Source: Alphaproteobacteria bacterium
Lineage (GTDB): Bacteria > Pseudomonadota > Alphaproteobacteria > Bin65
DNA: 64,000 bases
Direction of reading: 5' to 3'
Assembly (NCBI GenBank): GCA_022819985.1
Contig: JAJEGH010000014.1
Location: forward strand, 8,086 to 72,085
Each line of letters opens with the position of its first letter. The first letter of the stretch is position 1. Position numbers and translations under genes: made by a program. This document shows positions 21,876 through 47,513 of the stretch, piece by piece. The notes under the pieces are model-generated. The model was given only the letters and a program-made list of their open reading frames with translations, did not search any database and had not been told where the DNA came from.

Positions 21876-22248
21876 GGCATGTTCCTTTACCGGTTCGGCC
21901 GCCGCGGACATTCATCCGGCCCTTGGCCGTTTCGGCCATCGGAGTCCGGACACCGGAACGACAGAACCGGATTTCCCGGCCGCCGCAAATCCGCGTGAGG
22001 GGTTGACGGCGCAAGACCTAGGCTCGCAGCGGTCGAAGCGCAACGCCCGCGCGGCGGCATGCGGCAAATCTCCTGCCTGCGGGCCCGTCCGTGCTGGCGC
22101 GGCGCTCCCGGCGGGATCGTGCGGGGGGTGCCTGGGTCGCCGGCGCGGCCGGCCCGTTGCTTGGGCGCCGGCCGCCATGCTCTGCTGCGGCGCGAAGGCG
22201 CACTATTACAAAATGTTGACGATTCTGGGCGTGCGCCACAAAATCTTG

Positions 22249-27145: not shown

Positions 27146-29590
27146 ATGAAGGACCAGGCGCGCGTTGTCGTCATCGGCGGCGGAGTGGTCGGCGTTTCGA
27201 CCCTCTACCATTTGGCGAAAAAGGGCTGGACCGACGTCGTGCTGCTGGAACGGACCGAACTGACGGCGGGCTCGACCTGGCACGCCGCCGGCCTGCTGCC
27301 GCTGTTCAACATGAGCTATTCGGTCGGCCAGCTGCACCAATATTCGGTCAACCTCTACAAGACGCTGGAAGCCGAGACCGGCCAGGACGTCAGCTTCCAC
27401 GTCAACGGCAACCTGCGCCTCGCCACCAACCGCGACCGCATGGACGAATACCGCCTCTACCAGTGCACGGCGGAGACCATCGGCGTCGAATGCGAAATTA
27501 TCGATGTCGAGCGCATCAGGAAGCTGTGGCCGCTGATTAACGCCGAGGGCCTGGTCGGCGCGCTGTGGCACCCGACGGACGGCCATATCGCGCCGGTCGA
27601 CGTCACGATGGCGCTGGCCAGGGGCGCCCGCAACCGCGGCGCGGAGATCCACCAGCACACGACCGTCACGGGGATCGAGCGCGACAGCAGCGAATGGATC
27701 GTCAGGACCGACAAGGGCGACATCCGCTGCGAGCATGTCGTGAGCGCGACCGGCAACTATGCGCGCACCACCGCCCGGATGGTCGGCCTGGAAATCCCGG
27801 CGATCCCGGTGCAGCACCAGTATATCGTCACCGACGTCGATCCCGTCCTGAAGGAATACCGCGAGGCCGGCAATACGGAACTCGCCGTGCTCCGGGAATC
27901 CGACGCCTCCTATTATCTGCGCGAGGAGCGCATGGGCTGGATTCTCGGCCCCTACGAGCGCCACGCGCCGGCCTGCTTCGTCGACGGCGTGCCGGAGAGT
28001 TTCGAGAAGGACCTGTTCCCCGGCGAGCTGGACCGGCTCGTACCCCATGTCGAGGCCGCCATGAACCGGGTGCCGAGCTTCGAGAACGCCGGCATCAAGG
28101 ACATCGTCAACGGCCCGATCGCCTATACGCCCGACGGCAACCCGATGGTCGGCCCGGCCTTCGGCCTGGAGAATTTCTGGCTGTCGGAAGGCCACAGCTT
28201 CGGCATCACCGCGGCCGGCGGCGCCGGCTGGCAGCTCGCCGAATGGATCGTCGACGGCGAACCGACGGTCGACATGATCGGCGTCGATCCGCGACGCTTC
28301 GGCGTGGTCTCGAAGAATTTCGCGAAGATCAAGAACGAGGAGGCCTACGAGCACGTCTTCATCAACCACTATCCGATGGAGGAGCGCGGTCTCGGCCGGC
28401 CGGCCAAGGCGCCGCCCTGCTACGAGCGGCTGGACCGGGCCGGCGCCGTCTGGGGCGCGCGCTTCGGCTGGGAGCGGCCGAACTGGTTCGCGCCCGAAGG
28501 CGTCGAGCGCAAGGACGACTACTCCTACCGCCGTTCCAACTGGTTCCGGCATGTCGGCAACGAGGTCCGCACCATGCGCGAGCGGGTCGGGCTGATGGAG
28601 CTGTCGAGCTTCGCGAAATACCTGGTTGAGGGCCCGGGCGCGCGGGCCTGGCTCGACGGCATGGTGGCGAACAACGTGCCGCGCAAGGTCTCGCGCATGA
28701 CGCTCGCCCACGCGCTCAACCCCTCGGGCTCGGTGCGCAGCGAATTCACCATCCTGCGCCTGCCCGACGGCCTCTATGGCGAGCGCTTCTACCTGGTCGG
28801 CCCCGGCGCGGCCCACGACATGGACTGGGACATCCTCACCCGCCGGGCGCCGCGCGACGGCTCGGTCTTCCTGCAGGACCTGACGACGCAATACGGCGTG
28901 TTCGTGCTCGCCGGCCCGCAGGCCCGCAAGGTGCTGGAGAAGCTGGCCGACGCCGACGTTTCCAACGAGGCCTTCCCGTGGCTGACGGGCCGGGACATCC
29001 CGGTCGGCTACTGCCCGGACGTGCGGGCGCTGAGGGTCAATTTCGTCGGCTCCCTCGGCTGGGAGCTGCACCATCCCATCGAATACCAGATCCATCTCTA
29101 CGACGCGTTGATGGCGGCCGGCGCCGAGTTCGACATCGGTCCCGTCGGCATGCGCGCGATGGATTCGATGCGGCTGGAGAAGAGCTACCGCCTGTTCGGC
29201 ACCGACCTGAACGCCGAGAACAGCGTCCTGGAGGCCGGGCTGGACCGTTTCGTGCGCTTCGACAAGAACGCCGACTTCACCGGCCGCGCGGCGCTGCTCG
29301 CCCAGAAGGAACAGGGCGTGCCCAACGCCTACCGCACCATCGAGATCGACGCCGACGACGCCGACCCCTTCGGCAACGAGCCGGTCTATATCGACGGCGA
29401 GGTGGCCGGCCGGGGCACCGCCGGCGGCTACGGCCACCATGTCGGCAAGAGCCTGCTGCTCGGCTATGTGCGCAGCGACGCGGCGGAGATCGGCCGGGAG
29501 TGCGAAGTCCGGGTCCTCGACCAGCGCCGCCCGGCCCGGATTATCGCCGAAAGCCCCTACGATCCGGACAATGAGGCGCTGCGGGCGTAG
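27146..29590 (+). CDS. Dimethylglycine/sarcosine dehydrogenase-family enzyme (FAD oxidoreductase fused to a GcvT-type folate-binding aminomethyltransferase domain)
   Basis: 814 aa. N-terminal dinucleotide fold VVVIGGGVVGVSTLYHLAKKGW and STWHAAGL. The C-terminal half resembles GcvT (LMELSSFAKYLVEGPGA..., GSLGWELHHP, GYGHHVGKSLLLGYV). Confidence 0.88.
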   Translation: MKDQARVVVIGGGVVGVSTLYHLAKKGWTDVVLLERTELTAGSTWHAAGLLPLFNMSYSVGQLHQYSVNLYKTLEAETGQDVSFHVNGNLRLATNRDRMDEYRLYQCTAETIGVECEIIDVERIRKLWPLINAEGLVGALWHPTDGHIAPVDVTMALARGARNRGAEIHQHTTVTGIERDSSEWIVRTDKGDIRCEHVVSATGNYARTTARMVGLEIPAIPVQHQYIVTDVDPVLKEYREAGNTELAVLRESDASYYLREERMGWILGPYERHAPACFVDGVPESFEKDLFPGELDRLVPHVEAAMNRVPSFENAGIKDIVNGPIAYTPDGNPMVGPAFGLENFWLSEGHSFGITAAGGAGWQLAEWIVDGEPTVDMIGVDPRRFGVVSKNFAKIKNEEAYEHVFINHYPMEERGLGRPAKAPPCYERLDRAGAVWGARFGWERPNWFAPEGVERKDDYSYRRSNWFRHVGNEVRTMRERVGLMELSSFAKYLVEGPGARAWLDGMVANNVPRKVSRMTLAHALNPSGSVRSEFTILRLPDGLYGERFYLVGPGAAHDMDWDILTRRAPRDGSVFLQDLTTQYGVFVLAGPQARKVLEKLADADVSNEAFPWLTGRDIPVGYCPDVRALRVNFVGSLGWELHHPIEYQIHLYDALMAAGAEFDIGPVGMRAMDSMRLEKSYRLFGTDLNAENSVLEAGLDRFVRFDKNADFTGRAALLAQKEQGVPNAYRTIEIDADDADPFGNEPVYIDGEVAGRGTAGGYGHHVGKSLLLGYVRSDAAEIGRECEVRVLDQRRPARIIAESPYDPDNEALRA

Positions 29591-34247: not shown

Positions 34248-35828
34248 ATGAGCGAAGAACGCGGCAGGAAGCCCGGAGAGCGGGCCGGACGGGCCGGGCG
34301 GCGGTCCGGCAGGGCCGGCGGCGGCCGGGAAAGCCGGCGCGCGGCGCGGACCGCCGGGCCGGTCGAGCAGCTGCGCGCGATCCGGCGCAAAATCCCCAGG
34401 GTCGAGCTGCTGTCGGCCGAGGGGCTGGAGCTTATCGAGCATAACGCCGACACGATCCTGGAAGAGGTCGGCATCGAGTTCCACGACGATCCGGAATGTC
34501 TGGAGATGTTCCGCGATGCCGGCGCGGACGTTGACGAAACGCGCGTCCGTTTTCCGCGCGGCCTCGCCCGGCAACTGTGCTCGACCGCGCCGGCGCAATA
34601 CACCCAGCACGCGCGCAACCCGGAACGCTCGGTGGAGATCGGCGGCGACCACACGGTGTTCGCGCCGGTCTACGGCCCGCCCTTCGTGCGCGACCTCGAC
34701 CGGGGCCGGCGCTACGGCACCATCGAGGATTTCCGCAACTTTGTGAAGCTCGCGTACCTGTCGCCCGCCCTGCACCATTCGGGCGGGACGGTGTGCGAGC
34801 CGGTCGACGTGCCGATCGCCAAGCGGCATCTCGACATGGTCTACGCGCATATGCGCCTTTCGGACAAACCCTTCATGGGCTCGGTCACCCATCCGGAGCG
34901 CGCCGCCGACACCGTCGCCATGGCGAAGATCCTGTTCGGCGACGACTTCGTCGACGAAAACTGCGTCTGCACCAGCCTGATCAACGCCAATTCGCCCATG
35001 GTGTTCGACGCCACCATGCTGGGCGCGCTCAAGACCTATGCCAAAGCCGGCCAGGCGACGGTGGTCAGCCCCTTCATCCTGGCCGGCGCCATGGCGCCCG
35101 TAACCGTCGCCGGCGTGATGGCCCAGACGCTGGCCGAGGCGATGGCCGGCATCGCCGTGACCCAGCTCTGCCGGCCGGGGACGCCGGTGGTGTTCGGCAG
35201 CTTCTCGAGCTCGATCTCCATGCAGTCCGGCGCGCCGACCTTCGGCACCCCGGAGCCGGCGCTCGCCCTGTTCGGCCTGGCGGCGCTGGCGCGCCGGCTC
35301 GGCCTGCCCTTCCGCAACGGCGGTTCGCTCTGCGCCTCGAAGCTGCCGGACGCCCAGGCAGCCTACGAAAGCGCGAACACGCTGATGCCGACGGTATTGG
35401 CCGGGGTGAATTTCGTGCTCCACGCCGCCGGCTGGCTCGAAGGCGGGCTGGCGTCGAGCTACGAGAAGCTGGTCATGGACGCCGACCAGCTCGCCCTGCA
35501 CCAGGTGATCGCCGGCGGCTACGACCTGTCGGAGAACGGCCAGGCGCTGAGCGCGGTGCGCGAGGTCGGCCCGGGCAGCCACTATCTCGGCTGCCAACAT
35601 ACCCAGGACAATTTCGAGACCGCCTTCTGGCGCTCGGCGGTCGCGGACAACAACAGCTTCGAGCAATGGCAGAGCGACGGTTCGAAGGACATCGTCGCGC
35701 GCGCCAACGAGCGCTGGAAGGCCATGCTGGCGAGCTACGAGGCGCCGCCGATCGACCCGGCGATCGACGAGGCGCTGATCGCGTTCATCGCGAAGAAAAA
35801 GGAGAGCCTGCCCGACGGGATCGGGTGA
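34248..35828 (+). CDS. MttB-superfamily (trimethylamine methyltransferase family) protein, non-pyrrolysine type
   Basis: 526 aa, uninterrupted (no in-frame TAG). Family-typical blocks: LSAEGLELIEHNADTILEEVGIEF, FAPVYGPPFV.D, NANSPMVFD, SPFILAGAMAPVT, GAPTFGTPE, KLVMDADQL, GPGSHYLG..HT. Arg-rich N-terminal extension. Confidence 0.9.
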   Translation: MSEERGRKPGERAGRAGRRSGRAGGGRESRRAARTAGPVEQLRAIRRKIPRVELLSAEGLELIEHNADTILEEVGIEFHDDPECLEMFRDAGADVDETRVRFPRGLARQLCSTAPAQYTQHARNPERSVEIGGDHTVFAPVYGPPFVRDLDRGRRYGTIEDFRNFVKLAYLSPALHHSGGTVCEPVDVPIAKRHLDMVYAHMRLSDKPFMGSVTHPERAADTVAMAKILFGDDFVDENCVCTSLINANSPMVFDATMLGALKTYAKAGQATVVSPFILAGAMAPVTVAGVMAQTLAEAMAGIAVTQLCRPGTPVVFGSFSSSISMQSGAPTFGTPEPALALFGLAALARRLGLPFRNGGSLCASKLPDAQAAYESANTLMPTVLAGVNFVLHAAGWLEGGLASSYEKLVMDADQLALHQVIAGGYDLSENGQALSAVREVGPGSHYLGCQHTQDNFETAFWRSAVADNNSFEQWQSDGSKDIVARANERWKAMLASYEAPPIDPAIDEALIAFIAKKKESLPDGIG

Positions 35829-36654: not shown

Positions 36655-38706
36655 CTATCTGCGCCGTCGGCGCCCTCTCCGGCCCGAACTCTCCGCCGCG
36701 CCGCCGTCGTCCGCCAGCCGCGCCGGCAGGGTCACCTGCTCCGAGAGATGCGGATAGTCTGCGGTGGCGTGGGGCAGCGCCATCGCGTCGACGAAATGAC
36801 GCTGGAATTCGGGTTCGACCGCGGTCTCGACCTTTTCGATGCCGCGCACGACCCGCTCGATCTCGTCGCGCGCCGCCTGGTCGAGCAGGGCAATGCGCGC
36901 GCCGGTGCCGGCCGCGTTGCCCGCCGAAACCACCTTGTCGAGGGCGCAATCCGGAATCATGCCCAGGACCATGGCGTATTTCGGCTCGATATGGGTGCCG
37001 AAGGCGCCGGCCAGCACGATCCGGTCCGGCGCCGCAATGCCCTTGCGGTCCATCAGCAGGCGCGCGCCGGCATAAAGCGCCGCCTTGGCGAGCTGGATGG
37101 CGCGGACGTCGACCTGGTAGATGCGGATGTCGCGTGCGCCCGCCTTGAACAGACGATAGCTGAACGTCCTGTCCTCTGCCTGGAGCCGATCGGTCCTACC
37201 GCTCAGGGCGCCGTCGATCGTGCCGTCGGGTTTAATCAGGCCGGCGAGATACATTTCGGCCAGCGCTTCGATGATACCGGAGCCGCAGATGCCGGTGACC
37301 CCGGTATCGCCCGCCGCCTGCTCGAAGCCGGGTTCGTCGGACCATAATTCGCAGCCGATCACCTTGACCCGCGCCTCCAGGGTTTCGGAATCGATGCGCA
37401 CCCGCTCGATGGCGCCGGGCGCCGCGCGCTGGCCGCAGATTATCTGTGCTCCCTCGAACGCCGGGCCGGTCGGCGACGAAGCTGCGAGGATCCGTTCCCT
37501 GTTGCCGAGCACGATCTCGGCATTCGTTCCGACATCGACGATCAGCACGGTTTCGTCGGAGAGGTAGGGCGTTTCGGAGAGGATCACGCCGGCGGCGTCG
37601 GCGCCGACATGGCCGGCGATGCAGGGCAGGAAATAGACCCGCGCATCCGGATTGACCGCCAGCCCGATCTCGGACGCCCAGAGCGTCTGCGCCCGGTTGG
37701 TCGCGAGCGCAAAGGGTGCGCCGCCCAGCTCGACCGGGTCGATGCCGAGCAGCAGATGATGCATGATCGGGTTGCCGACGAAGGTCGCGTTGAGGATGTC
37801 CTCGGCCGAAATCCCGGCCTCGGCCGTGGCGTCGGCGACCAGCCGGTTGACCGCCTCGCGCACCGCTTCGGTCAACTCGGCATCGCCGCCCGGATTCATC
37901 ATGGCGTAGGAGACCCGGCTCATCAGGTCTTCGCCGAAGCGGATCTGCGGGTTCATGACTCCGACCGAGGCAACGACTTCTCCGGTCGAAAGGTCGGCCA
38001 GATGCGCGGCCACGGTCGTCGATCCGACATCGTAGGCAAGACCGTACGCCTTGTCGCGAAAACCCGGCCAGATCGCGATGATCCGCTCTCTCCGGTGAAT
38101 CGCGACGGTCGCCGTCCAGTCGCCGTCGCGCAGTATTTTCTGCAACCCCTGCAGGGTACGGATATCGCCCTCGAGATCGCCGAGGCCCCACTGGTCCCGC
38201 AGCGCCACGGCGAGCCGTTCGAAATCGCCGGTCGGGCGGTGCATGTCGGGCTTCTCGACCTCGACATAATGCAGCCGGACAGCCGGGTTGACGGTGATAT
38301 CGCGGACTTCGGCCCGTTTGCGGACCACCTGCTTGTGGACCTGGCTGTCCGGCGGCACGTCGATCACCAGATCGCCCTGCACCGTGGCGTGGCAACCCAG
38401 CCGCCGTTCCTCGGCCAGCCCACGCCGGTCCTTGTAGCGCTGCTCGTTGGCGCTGAAGGCGCTCAGATGGCTTGCTGCGCTTTCGAGCCCGAACTTGGCG
38501 AAGCGGCCGGTGCCGATCGTGATCTGGCAGCGGCCGCAGATGCCGCGGCCGCCGCACACCGAATCCAGATCGACGCCGAGGTCGCGCGCCGCCTGGAGGA
38601 GATTGGTGCCAACCGGAAAGGTGCCGCGCCTGCCCGACGGCGTAAAGACGATCTTCGCCTCCCGCCCGGCGGTCGTGTCCCCGGTGCCCGGCCGGCTCTC
38701 AGGCAC
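36655..38706 (-). CDS. Corrinoid reductive activase-like protein (N-terminal 2Fe-2S ferredoxin domain plus ASKHA ATPase domain; RACo/RamA-like)
   Basis: 683 aa. Plant-type ferredoxin cysteine pattern SVCGGRGICGRCQ...LGCH. ASKHA-like phosphate motifs (GLAYDVGSTTVAAHL, LIVDVGTNAEIVLG, GICGSGIIE). Overlaps the stop of the upstream methyltransferase gene by 8 nt. Confidence 0.85.
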   Translation of the reverse strand: MPESRPGTGDTTAGREAKIVFTPSGRRGTFPVGTNLLQAARDLGVDLDSVCGGRGICGRCQITIGTGRFAKFGLESAASHLSAFSANEQRYKDRRGLAEERRLGCHATVQGDLVIDVPPDSQVHKQVVRKRAEVRDITVNPAVRLHYVEVEKPDMHRPTGDFERLAVALRDQWGLGDLEGDIRTLQGLQKILRDGDWTATVAIHRRERIIAIWPGFRDKAYGLAYDVGSTTVAAHLADLSTGEVVASVGVMNPQIRFGEDLMSRVSYAMMNPGGDAELTEAVREAVNRLVADATAEAGISAEDILNATFVGNPIMHHLLLGIDPVELGGAPFALATNRAQTLWASEIGLAVNPDARVYFLPCIAGHVGADAAGVILSETPYLSDETVLIVDVGTNAEIVLGNRERILAASSPTGPAFEGAQIICGQRAAPGAIERVRIDSETLEARVKVIGCELWSDEPGFEQAAGDTGVTGICGSGIIEALAEMYLAGLIKPDGTIDGALSGRTDRLQAEDRTFSYRLFKAGARDIRIYQVDVRAIQLAKAALYAGARLLMDRKGIAAPDRIVLAGAFGTHIEPKYAMVLGMIPDCALDKVVSAGNAAGTGARIALLDQAARDEIERVVRGIEKVETAVEPEFQRHFVDAMALPHATADYPHLSEQVTLPARLADDGGAAESSGRRGRRRRR

Positions 38707-39607
38707 GGCGGCGGCGACGCCCTTCCCGACCGCGGCGGCTCTCGCTCTCGGCGGCGGGATCGCGAAACTTCTTCAGCCAGCGCCGGCAGTCGGGATCGTT
38801 GCCATTCATCACATCGGCCGCCATCACGGCATCGACTTCATGGGAATGCAAGGGATTCATGATTGCCGAGGTCATGCCCGAACAGGCCGCCATGCCGAGG
38901 AAGGCCGCATTGAGCCCGGGCCGGTTCGGCAGGCCGAAGCCGATATTGGACGCGCCGCAGGTACTGTTGACGCCCAGTTCGTCGCGCAACCGGTTCAGGA
39001 TGTGGAAGACCTGCCGGCCCGCCCGGTTGATGGCGCCGATCGGCATGACCAGCGGATCGACCACGATATCCTCCTTCGGGATGCCGTAGTCGGCCGCGCG
39101 GCGCACGATCTTCCGGGCGACCTCGAAGCGGACGTCGGGATCTTCGGAAATGCCGGACTCGTCGTTGGAAATGGCGACGACGGCGCAGCCGTATTTCTTC
39201 ACCAGCGGCAGGACCGCCTCCAGCCGTTCCTCCTCGCCGGTCACCGAATTGAGCAGCGGCTTGCCCCGGTAGACCGACAGCCCCGCCTCCAGCGCCGCGA
39301 CGATCGAGGAATCGATGGAAAGCGGCACGTCGACCAGCGACTGCACCAGCTCGATGCAATCGGCCAGGATCTTCGGCTCGTCGGCCAGCGGCACGCCGGC
39401 GTTGACATCGAGCATATGCGCGCCGGCCTCGACCTGGGCGACGGCGTCGGCCTCGACCCGACTGTAGTCGCCGGCGCGCAACTCTTCCATCAGGATCTTG
39501 CGCCCCGTGGGATTGATGCGTTCGCCGATGATGCAGAATGGCCGGTCGAAACCGATAACGACCTCCCGGGTCGCGGAACTGACGACGGTTCGGCTCATGT
39601 CGGGCAA
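38699..39607 (-). CDS. Methyltetrahydrofolate:corrinoid methyltransferase (pterin-binding, MtrH/AcsE/MetH-like domain)
   Basis: 302 aa. IIGERINPTGRK, MLDVNAG, PLSIDSS, LNSVTGEE and GASNISFGLP-like (CGASNIGFGLPNR) blocks typical of pterin-binding methyltransferases. Confidence 0.85.
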   Translation of the reverse strand: MPDMSRTVVSSATREVVIGFDRPFCIIGERINPTGRKILMEELRAGDYSRVEADAVAQVEAGAHMLDVNAGVPLADEPKILADCIELVQSLVDVPLSIDSSIVAALEAGLSVYRGKPLLNSVTGEEERLEAVLPLVKKYGCAVVAISNDESGISEDPDVRFEVARKIVRRAADYGIPKEDIVVDPLVMPIGAINRAGRQVFHILNRLRDELGVNSTCGASNIGFGLPNRPGLNAAFLGMAACSGMTSAIMNPLHSHEVDAVMAADVMNGNDPDCRRWLKKFRDPAAESESRRGREGRRRRRA

Positions 39608-39625
39608 ACTCTCCGGTCCGGATGT

Positions 39626-39934
39626 CTAGACGGTCGCTTCGTCGATGCCGTTCGACCGGACGATCCGCTCGACCCGGTCTTCGGGATAGTCCCGCTCGAT
39701 GCGGCCGGCGGCCTCAGCGGCCGCCGTTTCCAGATCGTCGCCGCAATCGACCGGCGCGCTGCGGCGCCACTGTTCGAGATAGTCGTCGGTGCCGTGCAGC
39801 TTTGCGCGGATGGCCGCCCGGTCGATCGCCTTCTCGAACCGCACGTCCAGCTGCCGGCGCGCCCTCTTCCGGCCGGCGGACACGATGATCTGGGCCGGTA
39901 TATCGCGCCAGTAGATGATCTGGAGCTTCGCCAT
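39626..39934 (-). CDS. Small conserved hypothetical protein (resembles proteins annotated as 'virulence factor family'); function unknown
   Basis: 102 aa, MAKLQIIYWRDIPAQIIV.... Sits 3 nt downstream of the DUF1638-like gene inside the corrinoid operon. The family name comes from memory only. Confidence 0.6.
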   Translation of the reverse strand: MAKLQIIYWRDIPAQIIVSAGRKRARRQLDVRFEKAIDRAAIRAKLHGTDDYLEQWRRSAPVDCGDDLETAAAEAAGRIERDYPEDRVERIVRSNGIDEATV

Positions 39935-39937
39935 GCT

Positions 39938-40696
39938 TCAGGCCCCGGGTTCCGGCTCGGAATCGGCCGCGCGGCGCAGGAATTGTTCCAGTTCGCCGTA
40001 GCCGACATAGCGGTAGGCATAGCCGAGGCCCAGCCGCGCCGCAGCCGCCTGCGCCTTGACCTGGAGCCCGGCATCGCGGGTCTGGGCGATATAGAGGCAG
40101 CGCGTGTAGTGGCGGAAATAGTCGTCGCGCAACTCGGGATGGCGGTCGAGGCCGAGGCCCTGGACGATCAGCCGGTCGAAATGCCGGACCATGTAGTCGG
40201 TCAGGTAGAACGTGCCGGTTTCCGCTTCCGCCAGGTCCGCGAAAGCCTGCCGGCCGGTGTAGAAGGCGTAGCAGTGCGGCCCGTCGATGCGCTCGGCGCC
40301 CTCTTCGTCCAGCACCCGGTCGAGCAGCCCGCCGGTCCCGCAGTCGGCGTAGGCCACCAGGACCCGGCCGTAAGCCTTGCGGTATTCTCGGATCTTCCCG
40401 CGCACCCGGTCGGGAATCAGGTGCGGCGCGTTATGGAGCCACGCCGGCACGCAGGCGACATCGAAGGCGGGGACGGCGTTCATGTTTCTGAAATGGACGA
40501 TTTCCCGGGCCAGGGCGCCGCAGGCGATCACCATGGTGCCGGCCCGGCTCCGCCCGGCAAGGACCGCCTCGCTGTCCGGTGCGATATCGGGCGCCGCATC
40601 GGGCGGGCCGGCAGCGACGGCCGGCCGCGTGGCGCTCCGGGGGCGTCCGCTCCTGCCGGTTCGTGCGGTCGGGCGACGCGCCAGCGCAGCCTCCAT
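39938..40696 (-). CDS. DUF1638-like protein; function unknown
   Basis: The core MVIACGALAREIV...AWLHNAPHLIP...VAYADCGTGGLLD...GPHCYAFY...FYLTDY matches my recollection of DUF1638. The ATG at 40696 lies 3 nt after the corrinoid gene stop; an alternative start is 40534. Confidence 0.7.
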   Translation of the reverse strand: MEAALARRPTARTGRSGRPRSATRPAVAAGPPDAAPDIAPDSEAVLAGRSRAGTMVIACGALAREIVHFRNMNAVPAFDVACVPAWLHNAPHLIPDRVRGKIREYRKAYGRVLVAYADCGTGGLLDRVLDEEGAERIDGPHCYAFYTGRQAFADLAEAETGTFYLTDYMVRHFDRLIVQGLGLDRHPELRDDYFRHYTRCLYIAQTRDAGLQVKAQAAAARLGLGYAYRYVGYGELEQFLRRAADSEPEPGA

Positions 40697-40699
40697 GAT

Positions 40700-41410
40700 T
40701 CAGTTGATCGTCGCGCCGCCAAGCAGGTTGTGCTTGCGCTTCATGAAGTCCTTGGCGATTTCAACCGCAACCGCGGCGTCCGGGCAATAGGCATCGGCGC
40801 CGACCGCCTGGGCGAATTCCTCGTTCAGCGGCGCACCGCCGACCAGAACGGTATAGTCCTCGCGGATGCCCTTTTCCTTCAGGGTTTCGATCACGACCTT
40901 CATATAGGGCATCGTCGTCGTGAGCAGCGCCGACATGCCGAGGATGTCGGGCTCGTGCTCCTCGATGGCGGCGAGATAGTTCTCGACCGGATTGTCGATC
41001 CCGATATCGACCACCTCGAAGCCGGCGCCCTCCATCATCATCGACACCAGATTCTTGCCAATATCGTGGATGTCGCCCTTGACGGTGCCGATCACCATCT
41101 TGCCGACCCGGGGCGCGCCGGTCTCGGCGAGCAGCGGCCGGAGGATCGCCATGCCGGCCTTCATCGCGTTCGCCGATTGCAGCACCTCCGGCACGAACAG
41201 GATGCCGTCGCGGAAATCGATCCCGACGATGCGCATGCCCTCGACCAGCGCTTCGGTCAGGATATTGTAGGGCTGCCATTTGCGTTCGAGCAGGATGTTG
41301 ACGCCCTCTTCGATCTCCTCGCGGAGACCGTCGTAGAGATCGTCGTGCATCTGTTCGACCAGCTCTTCGTCGTCCAGTTCGCTGAGAACGAGATCGTCGT
41401 CGTCGGACAT
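40700..41410 (-). CDS. Corrinoid (cobalamin-binding) protein, MtbC/MttC/MetH B12-domain type
   Basis: 236 aa from the ATG at 41410. B12-binding cap helix region, then the DxHxxG motif (KGDIHDIGKN), ...SALLTTT... and ...GGAPL.... First gene of the minus-strand operon. Confidence 0.9.
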   Translation of the reverse strand: MSDDDDLVLSELDDEELVEQMHDDLYDGLREEIEEGVNILLERKWQPYNILTEALVEGMRIVGIDFRDGILFVPEVLQSANAMKAGMAILRPLLAETGAPRVGKMVIGTVKGDIHDIGKNLVSMMMEGAGFEVVDIGIDNPVENYLAAIEEHEPDILGMSALLTTTMPYMKVVIETLKEKGIREDYTVLVGGAPLNEEFAQAVGADAYCPDAAVAVEIAKDFMKRKHNLLGGATIN

Positions 41411-46137: not shown

Positions 46138-46866
46138 TTACGCCGCCCGTGGCGAGTCCGGCCCGACCTCCCCGGCGCGCCGGGCCTCGCGCAGCCAGAA
46201 ATACGCCGCCAGAAGGCCGAGCACGGCCCAGGCGACCAGGCCGACGCCGAGCGCCCTGGCGGCGAACAGGCTCGCCAGTTCCGGCGGCGCCGGGCCGATG
46301 AACTCGTCCGGATGCGGCGCGCCGATCAGGTGCGGCGCCAGGAGCAGCGCCGCGGCTACGGCCCGGAGCGCCCAGCCGCGGCCGAACGCGATCAACGCCA
46401 ACCCGGCGGCGGTCGCGCCGACCGTGCCGAACCACCAGATCTGGCGCAGATCGATTTCCGCCGCCGCCGAGCCCGGCAGTTCCGGCGGGGCGCCGAGCGC
46501 CGGGGCGAGCTGAAACGCCAGGAAGCCGGCCACGCCCCAGACCAGCCCCTGCCGGACCGTCACCCGCCAGCCGCGGTCTTCGGCCAGCGCCATCGCGGCA
46601 ACCAGCAGGAAGGCAAAGCCGGTGTAGGTCAGGGCCGTGAACAGCACGCTCAACCCGTCGCGCTCCAGATCGATGCCCGGGACGGCCGCCGTGGCGCCGG
46701 CCCCCCCATTGCCGGCCCCGCCGTCGCCGAAATGGTTCAGCGTCCCGCTCTCGTACAACTCGGCATGAAGCAGGACGGGCTGCACGAAGGCGAGTTGCAG
46801 CAGGGCCGCCACCACGCCCGCCAGAAAGCCGGCGAACAGCGCGCTGACCGCTATGCGGGAAAACAT
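46138..46866 (-). CDS. cbtA: Cobalt transporter subunit CbtA
   Basis: 242-aa polytopic protein (MFSRIAVSALFAGFLAGVVAALLQ...) directly downstream of cbtB and a B12 riboswitch. Confidence 0.8.
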   Translation of the reverse strand: MFSRIAVSALFAGFLAGVVAALLQLAFVQPVLLHAELYESGTLNHFGDGGAGNGGAGATAAVPGIDLERDGLSVLFTALTYTGFAFLLVAAMALAEDRGWRVTVRQGLVWGVAGFLAFQLAPALGAPPELPGSAAAEIDLRQIWWFGTVGATAAGLALIAFGRGWALRAVAAALLLAPHLIGAPHPDEFIGPAPPELASLFAARALGVGLVAWAVLGLLAAYFWLREARRAGEVGPDSPRAA

Positions 46867-47067: not shown

Positions 47068-47255
47068 ACACCCGACAACGATACTTCCCGGTTGCGTGGC
47101 AGGTTTCCTGGCTCACGGTTACCGGCCCTGGTGCGCTCGCCTTCCCGGCTTCTTGTCCAGTGGCGTTCGAGCGCGGCCAACCGTCTACAGTTGCGGGGAC
47201 AGCTCCGGACTCGATCGGCCGATCTCACCGGATTCCCTATTAAGCCCCTCCCCTT
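47068..47255 (-). promoter_or_regulatory. Cobalamin (B12) riboswitch controlling cbtBA
   Basis: The minus strand reads AATAGGGAATCCGGTGAGATCGG...CCGGAGCTGTCCCCGCAACTGTA...GCCACTGG...GCCGGGAAGGC...GCCAGGAAACCTGCC. This includes the conserved core and the B12-box (GCCACTG). It ends about 15 nt before the cbtB ATG. Confidence 0.9.
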
Positions 47256-47513
47256 CCGGTTCGGGACGCCAAGCCCGCAAGGATTTGCCCCATGACTCGA
47301 ACGCCGTCAAGCGTCCGGTCGCGGGGCGGCTCGAAATCGGGGGGCTTGTTCCTGTCGCGCGTTCCGGCAATTGACCGGGCGCGCCCGAATCCCTAGCGTC
47401 CCGGCCGCAGGGTCCGACGAAGGGCGCCGGTCGCCGGCAAAGAGCATTGGGCGCCCGCGCATTCGCCCGAGGCCTCGACCGGAGGCGCATACGGAAAGGG
47501 AGCGGCAACCGCA

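Follow-up and report, generated by a model that had tools for sequence, protein, structure and literature searches.

In a 64,000-nucleotide (nt) stretch of an Alphaproteobacteria genome (contig JAJEGH010000014.1 of assembly GCA_022819985.1, positions 8,086 to 72,085; hereafter "the window"), five closely packed genes on the minus strand (36655-41410) run in the order MtgC-DUF1638-SMALL-MtgD-RamA, where SMALL is our working name for a 102-amino-acid (aa) protein of the family PF13769 ("Virulence_fact"). We consider it reasonably probable that the DUF1638 protein and SMALL are parts of a module which depends on the reductive activase RamA and keeps the cobalamin bound to the corrinoid protein MtgC active. 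On sequence grounds, the whole set is the aerobic MtgBCD(E) glycine-betaine demethylase or split methionine synthase system, and glycine-betaine demethylation or methionine synthesis is its predicted function. That DUF1638 is a genetically required factor was known already; the tie of PF13769 to the RamA activase is new as far as we searched.

This tie is provided by gene fusions. The isolate Terrarubrum flagellatum has a finished plasmid on which the MtgC and DUF1638 genes precede one open reading frame (ORF) of 760 aa, in which the Pfam domains are arranged in the order Virulence_fact-Fer2-RACo_linker-Raco_middle-RACo_C_ter. Using this fused protein as query, we inspected the best 120 clusters and found the same architecture in 22 of them (755-790 aa, 59-100% identity). 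Because these 22 clusters share it on contigs of up to 4.7 Mb, the SMALL-RamA fusion is not an assembly error, but an old and maintained arrangement. In two more contexts (L088 and L089), DUF1638 is encoded directly upstream of the fused gene, in one case with an overlap of 8 nt, and in L089 this holds although no MtgC gene is adjacent. The clusters of Terrarubrum and L088 read MtgC-DUF1638-SMALL::RamA, with neither MtgD nor the methylene-tetrahydrofolate (THF) reductase MetF nearby. Since the recurrent fusions go to RamA and none of those observed joins SMALL to MetF or MtgD, PF13769 is best read as a detachable N-terminal domain of the RamA activase, which would lie beside the ferredoxin domain. 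A first-pass annotation of the window had offered several roles for the two proteins. Among these, a partnership with the activase is now the best-supported role for SMALL and a plausible one for DUF1638, while a protection of Co(I) found no specific support. Further apparent fusions of SMALL (P0274, P0299, P0305, P0326, P0338 and P0261) were set aside, as they seem to stem from frameshifts or chimeric gene models.

The genes of the operon and the MttB gene, which adjoins it in divergent orientation, are as follows.

40700..41410, minus strand: MtgC-type corrinoid protein with a B12-binding_2 cap and a B12-binding domain (Pfam/NCBIfam)
39938..40696, minus strand: DUF1638 protein, 252 aa (PF07796, 89.9 bits)
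39626..39934, minus strand: SMALL, 102 aa (PF13769, 83.7 bits)
38699..39598, minus strand: MtgD-type methyl-THF:corrinoid methyltransferase, pterin-binding (PF00809; NF005719, 364.7 bits)
36655..38706, minus strand: RamA/RACo-type reductive activase, 683 aa (PF17650, PF17651, PF14574)
34248..35828, plus strand: MttB-superfamily methyltransferase, MtgB-like, 526 aa (PF06253, 782.7 bits)

The corrinoid gene stops with a TGA at 40702-40700, and the ATG of DUF1638 (40696) follows 3 nt downstream. The DUF1638 ORF stops with a TGA at 39940-39938, and SMALL starts after another 3 nt with the ATG at 39934 and ends with a TAG at 39628-39626. The coordinates of two ORFs embedded between the corrinoid and the methyltransferase genes, as first annotated, could be confirmed, and so could the first two of the annotated spacings (3, 3 and 18 nt). 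However, the third applies only if MtgD starts with the TTG at 39607; with the ATG at 39598 the gap is 27 nt, and this ATG is the likelier start because a GGAGAG lies about 10 nt upstream of it. Further downstream, the MtgD and RamA genes overlap by 8 nt (RamA start GTG 38706). The spacing suggests a stoichiometric co-expression of DUF1638 and SMALL with the core machinery. Both ORFs are real genes, because their GC content per codon position (0.74/0.53/0.85 for DUF1638 and 0.70/0.46/0.88 for SMALL) is accompanied by confident AlphaFold2 models.

The conservation of this arrangement was assessed by a profile search with SMALL in species-representative genomes. Relatives were found in at least 576 stretches, and the best 80 loci were analysed by projecting the window proteins together with MetV and MetF onto each of them. 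As all 80 loci were retrieved via SMALL, the set covers SMALL-bearing loci and not mtg loci at large; taxonomically, it comprises exclusively Alpha-, Beta- and Gammaproteobacteria. A recurrent same-strand order was observed, namely MtgC > DUF1638 > SMALL > (MetV-MetF or a single MetF) > MtgD > RamA, often accompanied by a divergent MttB gene. Because this order recurs across the Alpha-, Beta- and Gammaproteobacteria, the arrangement is far beyond chance. Of the 67 loci with sufficient upstream sequence, 53 have DUF1638 upstream of SMALL in the same orientation, 34 of them at a distance of at most 200 nt. The gene right after SMALL encodes MetV, MetF, MtgD or RamA in 63 of 68 loci. Conserved co-occurrence with corrinoid methyltransferase loci, a check that had been set beforehand, is therefore seen as an order recurring across the 80 loci, and the conclusion stands that DUF1638 and SMALL are conserved and transcribed together with the corrinoid methyl-transfer machinery, of which they form part. 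With regard to family size, DUF1638 is the larger family, with at least 8000 candidates compared to 1700 clusters of SMALL at 90% identity; at 50% identity, SMALL forms 1249 clusters.

The window represents a compact version of the operon without MetF, as do L003, L047 and L077. In most of the related operons (L004, L006-L008, L013-L016, L053, L081 and others), a methylene-THF reductase is inserted between SMALL and MtgD, either as a pair of a Cys-rich MetV (MTHFR_C) and MetF of the acetogen type or as a lone MetF. In roseobacters, SMALL is found with MetF2-MtgD and the MtgC-DUF1638 pair is located elsewhere. An unfused SMALL gene stops 14 nt short of RamA in L050, and in L066 SMALL likewise precedes RamA.

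For DUF1638, the functional evidence comes from published work. Transposon mutants in the P. inhibens DUF1638 gene PGA1_c13340 are methionine auxotrophs that are rescued by methionine; the gene is co-fit with three methionine-synthase pieces and a RamA-like protein, and across Alphaproteobacteria the presence and absence of DUF1638 matches that of RamA (Price 2018, PMC5764234). The authors of that study made "no specific proposal" for its function. In R. pomeroyi on betaine, SPO2162 (DUF1638) and RamA were more abundant, and the DUF1638 protein was labelled "B12-reactivation" (Mausz 2025, PMC12478193). The same study describes MtgBCD as a major oceanic route of glycine-betaine demethylation that, in many marine and soil bacteria, serves as methionine synthase, too. 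The PF13769 gene, which is present in the window operon, is mentioned in neither paper. Thus, the initial statement that neither protein has an assigned role holds for SMALL, which is described in no paper we found, but not for DUF1638, which was already linked to this system by the genetics of 2018. Like the MtgBCD(E) systems of P. inhibens and R. pomeroyi, the window encodes a non-pyrrolysine MttB, MtgC, a pterin-binding MtgD and a RamA-like activase, with DUF1638 directly after MtgC and a dimethylglycine-dehydrogenase-like gene nearby (27146-29590). In contrast to these systems, the parts are united in one tight operon, and neither MetF nor MetV is encoded anywhere in the 64 kb.

With its residues 82-240, the DUF1638 protein matches the whole PF07796 model (positions 1-161 of 161), well above the gathering cut-off of 27 bits, and contains the motifs VIACGAL, YADCGTGG and GPHCYAFY, in agreement with the DUF1638-like identity assigned at first. 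The AlphaFold2 model (mean pLDDT 84, with values below 50 for residues 1-33) shows alternating strands and helices, and the predicted core is alpha/beta and Rossmann-like. Across 62 proteobacterial sequences, no variation is seen at C59, H88, C119, H141, C142, T166 and D167, and almost none at C82 and D118. In the model, the conserved Cys, His and Asp residues follow consecutive strands, the usual ligand-binding edge, and this topology points to a putative pocket. Neither DUF1638 nor SMALL is represented by a model in NCBIfam. Outside the Proteobacteria, a haloarchaeal plasmid (Halomicrococcus) carries the order corrinoid protein - RamA - DUF1638 - MtrH-type methyltransferase, with a PF07796 match of 44 bits. 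The association of DUF1638 with corrinoid protein and RamA therefore spans two domains of life, and the archaeal case is also an aerobe.

Residues 1 to about 54 of DUF1638 form an Arg/Pro-rich, disordered N-terminal extension, which had been annotated under the condition that the ATG at 40696 is used. The frame of the extension and its first approximately 19 residues (MEAALARRPTARTGRSGR) recur in five relatives at 81-86% identity, some of which have L or V in place of the internal Met55. Because of this, the upstream ATG is probably used and the 54-residue extension translated, although its flat GC content over the codon positions (0.80/0.80/0.81) leaves some doubt. More distant homologues have shorter and unrelated N-termini, so the extension is kept in the closest clade only.

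SMALL matches PF13769 over model positions 2-81 of 81, above the gathering cut-off of 25 bits. In line with its initial description as a basic/acidic protein, the N-terminal half is basic, with the conserved residues R10, R22, R27, R32, R39 and R57/58, and the C-terminal half is acidic. Its AlphaFold2 model (mean pLDDT 92) consists of a three-stranded beta-meander and helices. One relative (P0241, 214 aa) contains two tandem PF13769 domains, which hints at the small protein acting as a dimer. None of the gene contexts examined gave any support for the name "virulence factor", and we found no paper on PF13769, on this small protein or on the S. meliloti locus tags near SMc04333. Between MtgD and RamA, S. 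meliloti additionally encodes a hypothetical protein of 112 aa that is rich in Ala (L081, 17970-18308); by eye it does not visibly resemble SMALL, and the window leaves no space for a counterpart between its MtgD and RamA genes. The small size of SMALL and its strongly basic, conserved N-terminal half might also suit a small operon regulator acting on nucleic acid or translation, especially as SMALL is often the first gene of a MetF-MtgD-RamA unit. We regard this as highly improbable, considering that an N-terminal fusion to an enzyme in at least 22 clusters would not be expected of a regulator and that the Pfam and PDB searches returned no DNA-binding family or fold for SMALL.

The proposed RamA-dependent module could work as follows. 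MtgC-bound cob(I)alamin would oxidise to inactive Co(II), and the RamA/RACo-type activase would return an electron to the cobalt via its ferredoxin-like domain and ATP. SMALL would act as the detachable N-terminal or docking domain of the activase, standing directly ahead of the ferredoxin domain when fused, and might help to position this domain either on MtgC or toward the electron donor. DUF1638, with its putative Cys/His/Asp pocket at the C-terminal strand ends and its translational coupling to MtgC, may bind MtgC or its cofactor and would be needed for the step from Co(II) to the active state, be it reactivation or a hand-over of the cofactor.

Several known systems resemble parts of this module. 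The RACo linker, the middle domain, the ASKHA domain and a ferredoxin-like N-terminus are features that the window activase has in common with RACo (AcsV) from Carboxydothermus and RamA from Methanosarcina, and presumably it also shares their task of driving Co(II) uphill to Co(I) with ATP. To the best of our knowledge, each of the characterised RACo/RamA activators acts in vitro on its own. The proteobacterial activase, however, is accompanied by DUF1638 and PF13769 and has a poly-Arg tail. In classical MetH, the reactivation domain shares the goal of rescuing oxidised cob(II)alamin on a DxHxxG (His-on) domain in an aerobe, but achieves it by reductive methylation with S-adenosylmethionine (SAM) and flavodoxin and has an unrelated fold; neither DUF1638 nor SMALL matches PF02965. 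CblC/CblD and MeaB/ATR are known examples of small accessory proteins dedicated to supplying a client enzyme with cobalamin or to repairing it there. DUF1638 is possibly analogous to these B12 chaperones, but the PDB searches revealed no similarity in sequence or fold.

This analogy leads to a different explanation, in which DUF1638 would be a chaperone loading or processing the cofactor of MtgC, either by corrinoid insertion or by removal of the upper ligand through thiol chemistry, as in CblC/CblD. DUF1638 always directly follows MtgC, and in roseobacters it resides with MtgC and not with RamA (PMC5764234 and our loci). The pocket-like conserved Cys and His residues would suit cobalt ligation or thiolate chemistry, and the methionine auxotrophy of the mutants fits equally well. 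However, the phylogenetic profile of DUF1638 follows RamA, DUF1638 adjoins the SMALL-RamA fusion without a neighbouring MtgC in L089 and overlaps the fused gene in one case, and the protein lacks similarity to known B12 chaperones. Altogether, a loading chaperone appears possible but rather unlikely.

Some observations weigh against the RamA-dependent module. The most frequent gene after SMALL encodes MetV or MetF (57 of 68 loci), which, judged by gene order alone, fits a role on the methyl-THF side equally well. The first-pass annotation had placed SMALL before the methyltransferase gene, which is true in the window, but elsewhere MetV/MetF and not MtgD is its commonest immediate neighbour. 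In five loci, none of MetV, MetF, MtgD and RamA follows SMALL within at least 2.5 kb of downstream sequence, and in the closely examined L029, L063 and L065 it is surrounded by unrelated genes. Furthermore, neither DUF1638 nor SMALL is encoded in the vicinity of the RamA homologues examined from Vescimonas and Thiodictyon; therefore, neither protein is intrinsic to RamA chemistry. Structural comparison lent no help: against PDB folds, the models of DUF1638 (best E 5.6e-3, TM 0.2-0.3) and SMALL (best E 0.7) gave nothing significant, and profile searches of PDB sequences found no relative of either. Finally, the haloarchaeal DUF1638 keeps C59, H88 and D118, but has Y in place of C82 and D in place of C119.

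The neighbourhood of SMALL might be explained if it were a subunit or coupling factor of the methyl-THF branch, acting with MetF or MetV-MetF and MtgD in the channelling of CH3-THF or the routing of electrons. Besides its position immediately upstream of MetV, MetF or MetF2 in the 57 loci, SMALL overlaps the start of MetV by 8 nt in S. meliloti, and in roseobacters it has remained with MetF2-MtgD, apart from MtgC-DUF1638. On the other hand, the window, L003, L047 and L077 retain SMALL without a MetF in the operon, the fusion clusters of Terrarubrum and L088 lack MetF and MtgD nearby, and the observed fusions go to RamA. In an exploratory mirror-tree analysis of 34 complete loci, the partial correlations of SMALL were 0.43 with MtgC, 0.31 with DUF1638, 0.21 with RamA and -0.02 with MtgD; the latter value, weak evidence as it is, gives no residual co-variation between SMALL and MtgD. 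A role of SMALL confined to the methyl-THF branch therefore seems quite improbable to us.

A further alternative, which overlaps with the proposed module, is that DUF1638 acts as a redox protein with an iron-sulfur or zinc centre and donates electrons to the ferredoxin domain of RamA. The invariant or nearly invariant C59, C82, C119 and C142 together with H88 and H141 should cluster according to the model. In aerobes, RamA also needs a physiological reductant, a part that such a donor could play. Against it stand the haloarchaeal substitutions at C82 and C119, and DUF1638 has neither a known iron-sulfur or flavin motif nor a structural neighbour in the PDB. A family-wide Cys4 iron-sulfur cluster was rejected on account of these two substitutions; a clade-specific metal site in Proteobacteria is possible from the conserved residues. 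Overall, we hold the redox-donor explanation to be unlikely.

Returning to the module around RamA and MtgC, a second feature of these loci concerns the termini of the proteins. In approximately 60 loci, MtgD and RamA both end in a poly-Arg tail (e.g. ...GGRRRRRRG). In the window, the tails read ...SRRGREGRRRRRA for MtgD (38699-38740) and ...SSGRRGRRRRR for RamA (36655-36690), and among about 50 predicted proteins of the window only these two have such a C-terminus. Similarly, the operon-adjacent MttB has an Arg/Gly-rich N-terminal extension (34248-34370), as does the adjacent MttB of other loci, and the S. meliloti homocysteine module bmt/MtgE ends with ...ARERRRRA. By contrast, the RamA homologues of Halomicrococcus, Vescimonas and Thiodictyon are devoid of a poly-Arg tail. 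The N-terminus of the window MtgC is very acidic (MSDDDDLVLSELDDEELVEQMHDDLYDGL; 41310-41410), and an acidic N-terminus is conserved in approximately 50 loci, with the consensus MSDD(D/E)..L..L.D(D/E)ELV.QMHDDLYDGL. The simplest reading of these termini suggests that the poly-Arg tails tether every docking partner electrostatically to an MtgC hub, and the Arg/Pro-rich extension of the window DUF1638 may be a clade-specific case of such a tethering device. Our literature search brought up no paper in which "arginine-rich" and "corrinoid protein" occur together.

One might go further and see in PF13769, DUF1638 and the poly-Arg tails an apparatus for the assembly of, and electron input into, a Co(I) corrinoid hub in oxygen-respiring cells. 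Here, the acidic N-terminus of MtgC would hold MtgB, MtgD, MtgE and RamA by their tails, the missing MtgC-bound metal or thiol centre required by RamA would be DUF1638, and PF13769 would dock the ferredoxin domain of RamA to DUF1638, possibly drawing electrons from the oxidation of CH3-THF by MetVF. In this complete form, we offer the idea as a speculative one with little likelihood.

The core proteins of the window conform to the aerobic system described above. MtgC comprises PF02607 and PF02310 with GDIHDIG as its DxHxxG motif, and the NCBIfam MtgC models of anaerobes score it below their cut-offs, consistent with the distinct clade reported in PMC12478193. RamA consists of the N-terminal ferredoxin-like region, to which ferredoxin-type models match weakly, followed by RACo linker, middle and ASKHA domains; among the NCBIfam models, AcsV and RamA score highest with it, both under the curated cut-offs. 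The MttB gene is an uninterrupted ORF scoring 273 with the pyrrolysine-type model TIGR02369 (cut-off 525), and because it has no in-frame stop, the protein is predicted to be of the non-pyrrolysine kind. A borderline Rfam match to PYLIS_3 within the same gene (35331-35427, plus strand; 38.3 bits, cut-off 38) probably reflects homology of mttB genes and not a functional pyrrolysine insertion element.

With respect to regulation, the RNA-family scan of the window gave neither a B12 riboswitch nor any other RNA element that would control the mtg operon, and a promoter and terminator scan of the operon was uninformative. The only cobalamin riboswitch of the window (RF00174, 101.5 bits; 47081-47288, minus strand) is found in the leader of another gene outside the mtg operon (46138-46866), which encodes a 242-aa membrane protein, possibly a cobalt- or B12-related transporter. 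An ordinary rpsB leader/sRNA element (RF01815, 40.5 bits; 21877-21999, minus strand) lies upstream of rpsB-tsf-pyrH-frr. The dimethylglycine-dehydrogenase-like gene mentioned above is located on the plus strand and encodes an 814-aa protein of the dimethylglycine/sarcosine dehydrogenase type (DAO + FAO_M + GCV_T), which fits the later demethylation steps of betaine catabolism; a gene of this type also follows the SMALL-RamA fusion in L089.

Corrinoid methyltransferases require super-reduced Co(I), and these results relate to the question of how oxygen-respiring bacteria keep such enzymes running. The analysis names two conserved components and, by gene fusion, links the PF13769 family to the RamA activase, an assignment that replaces the misleading label of a "virulence factor". 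If DUF1638 and PF13769 are left out, reconstitution and structural work on MtgBCD will probably fail or mislead.

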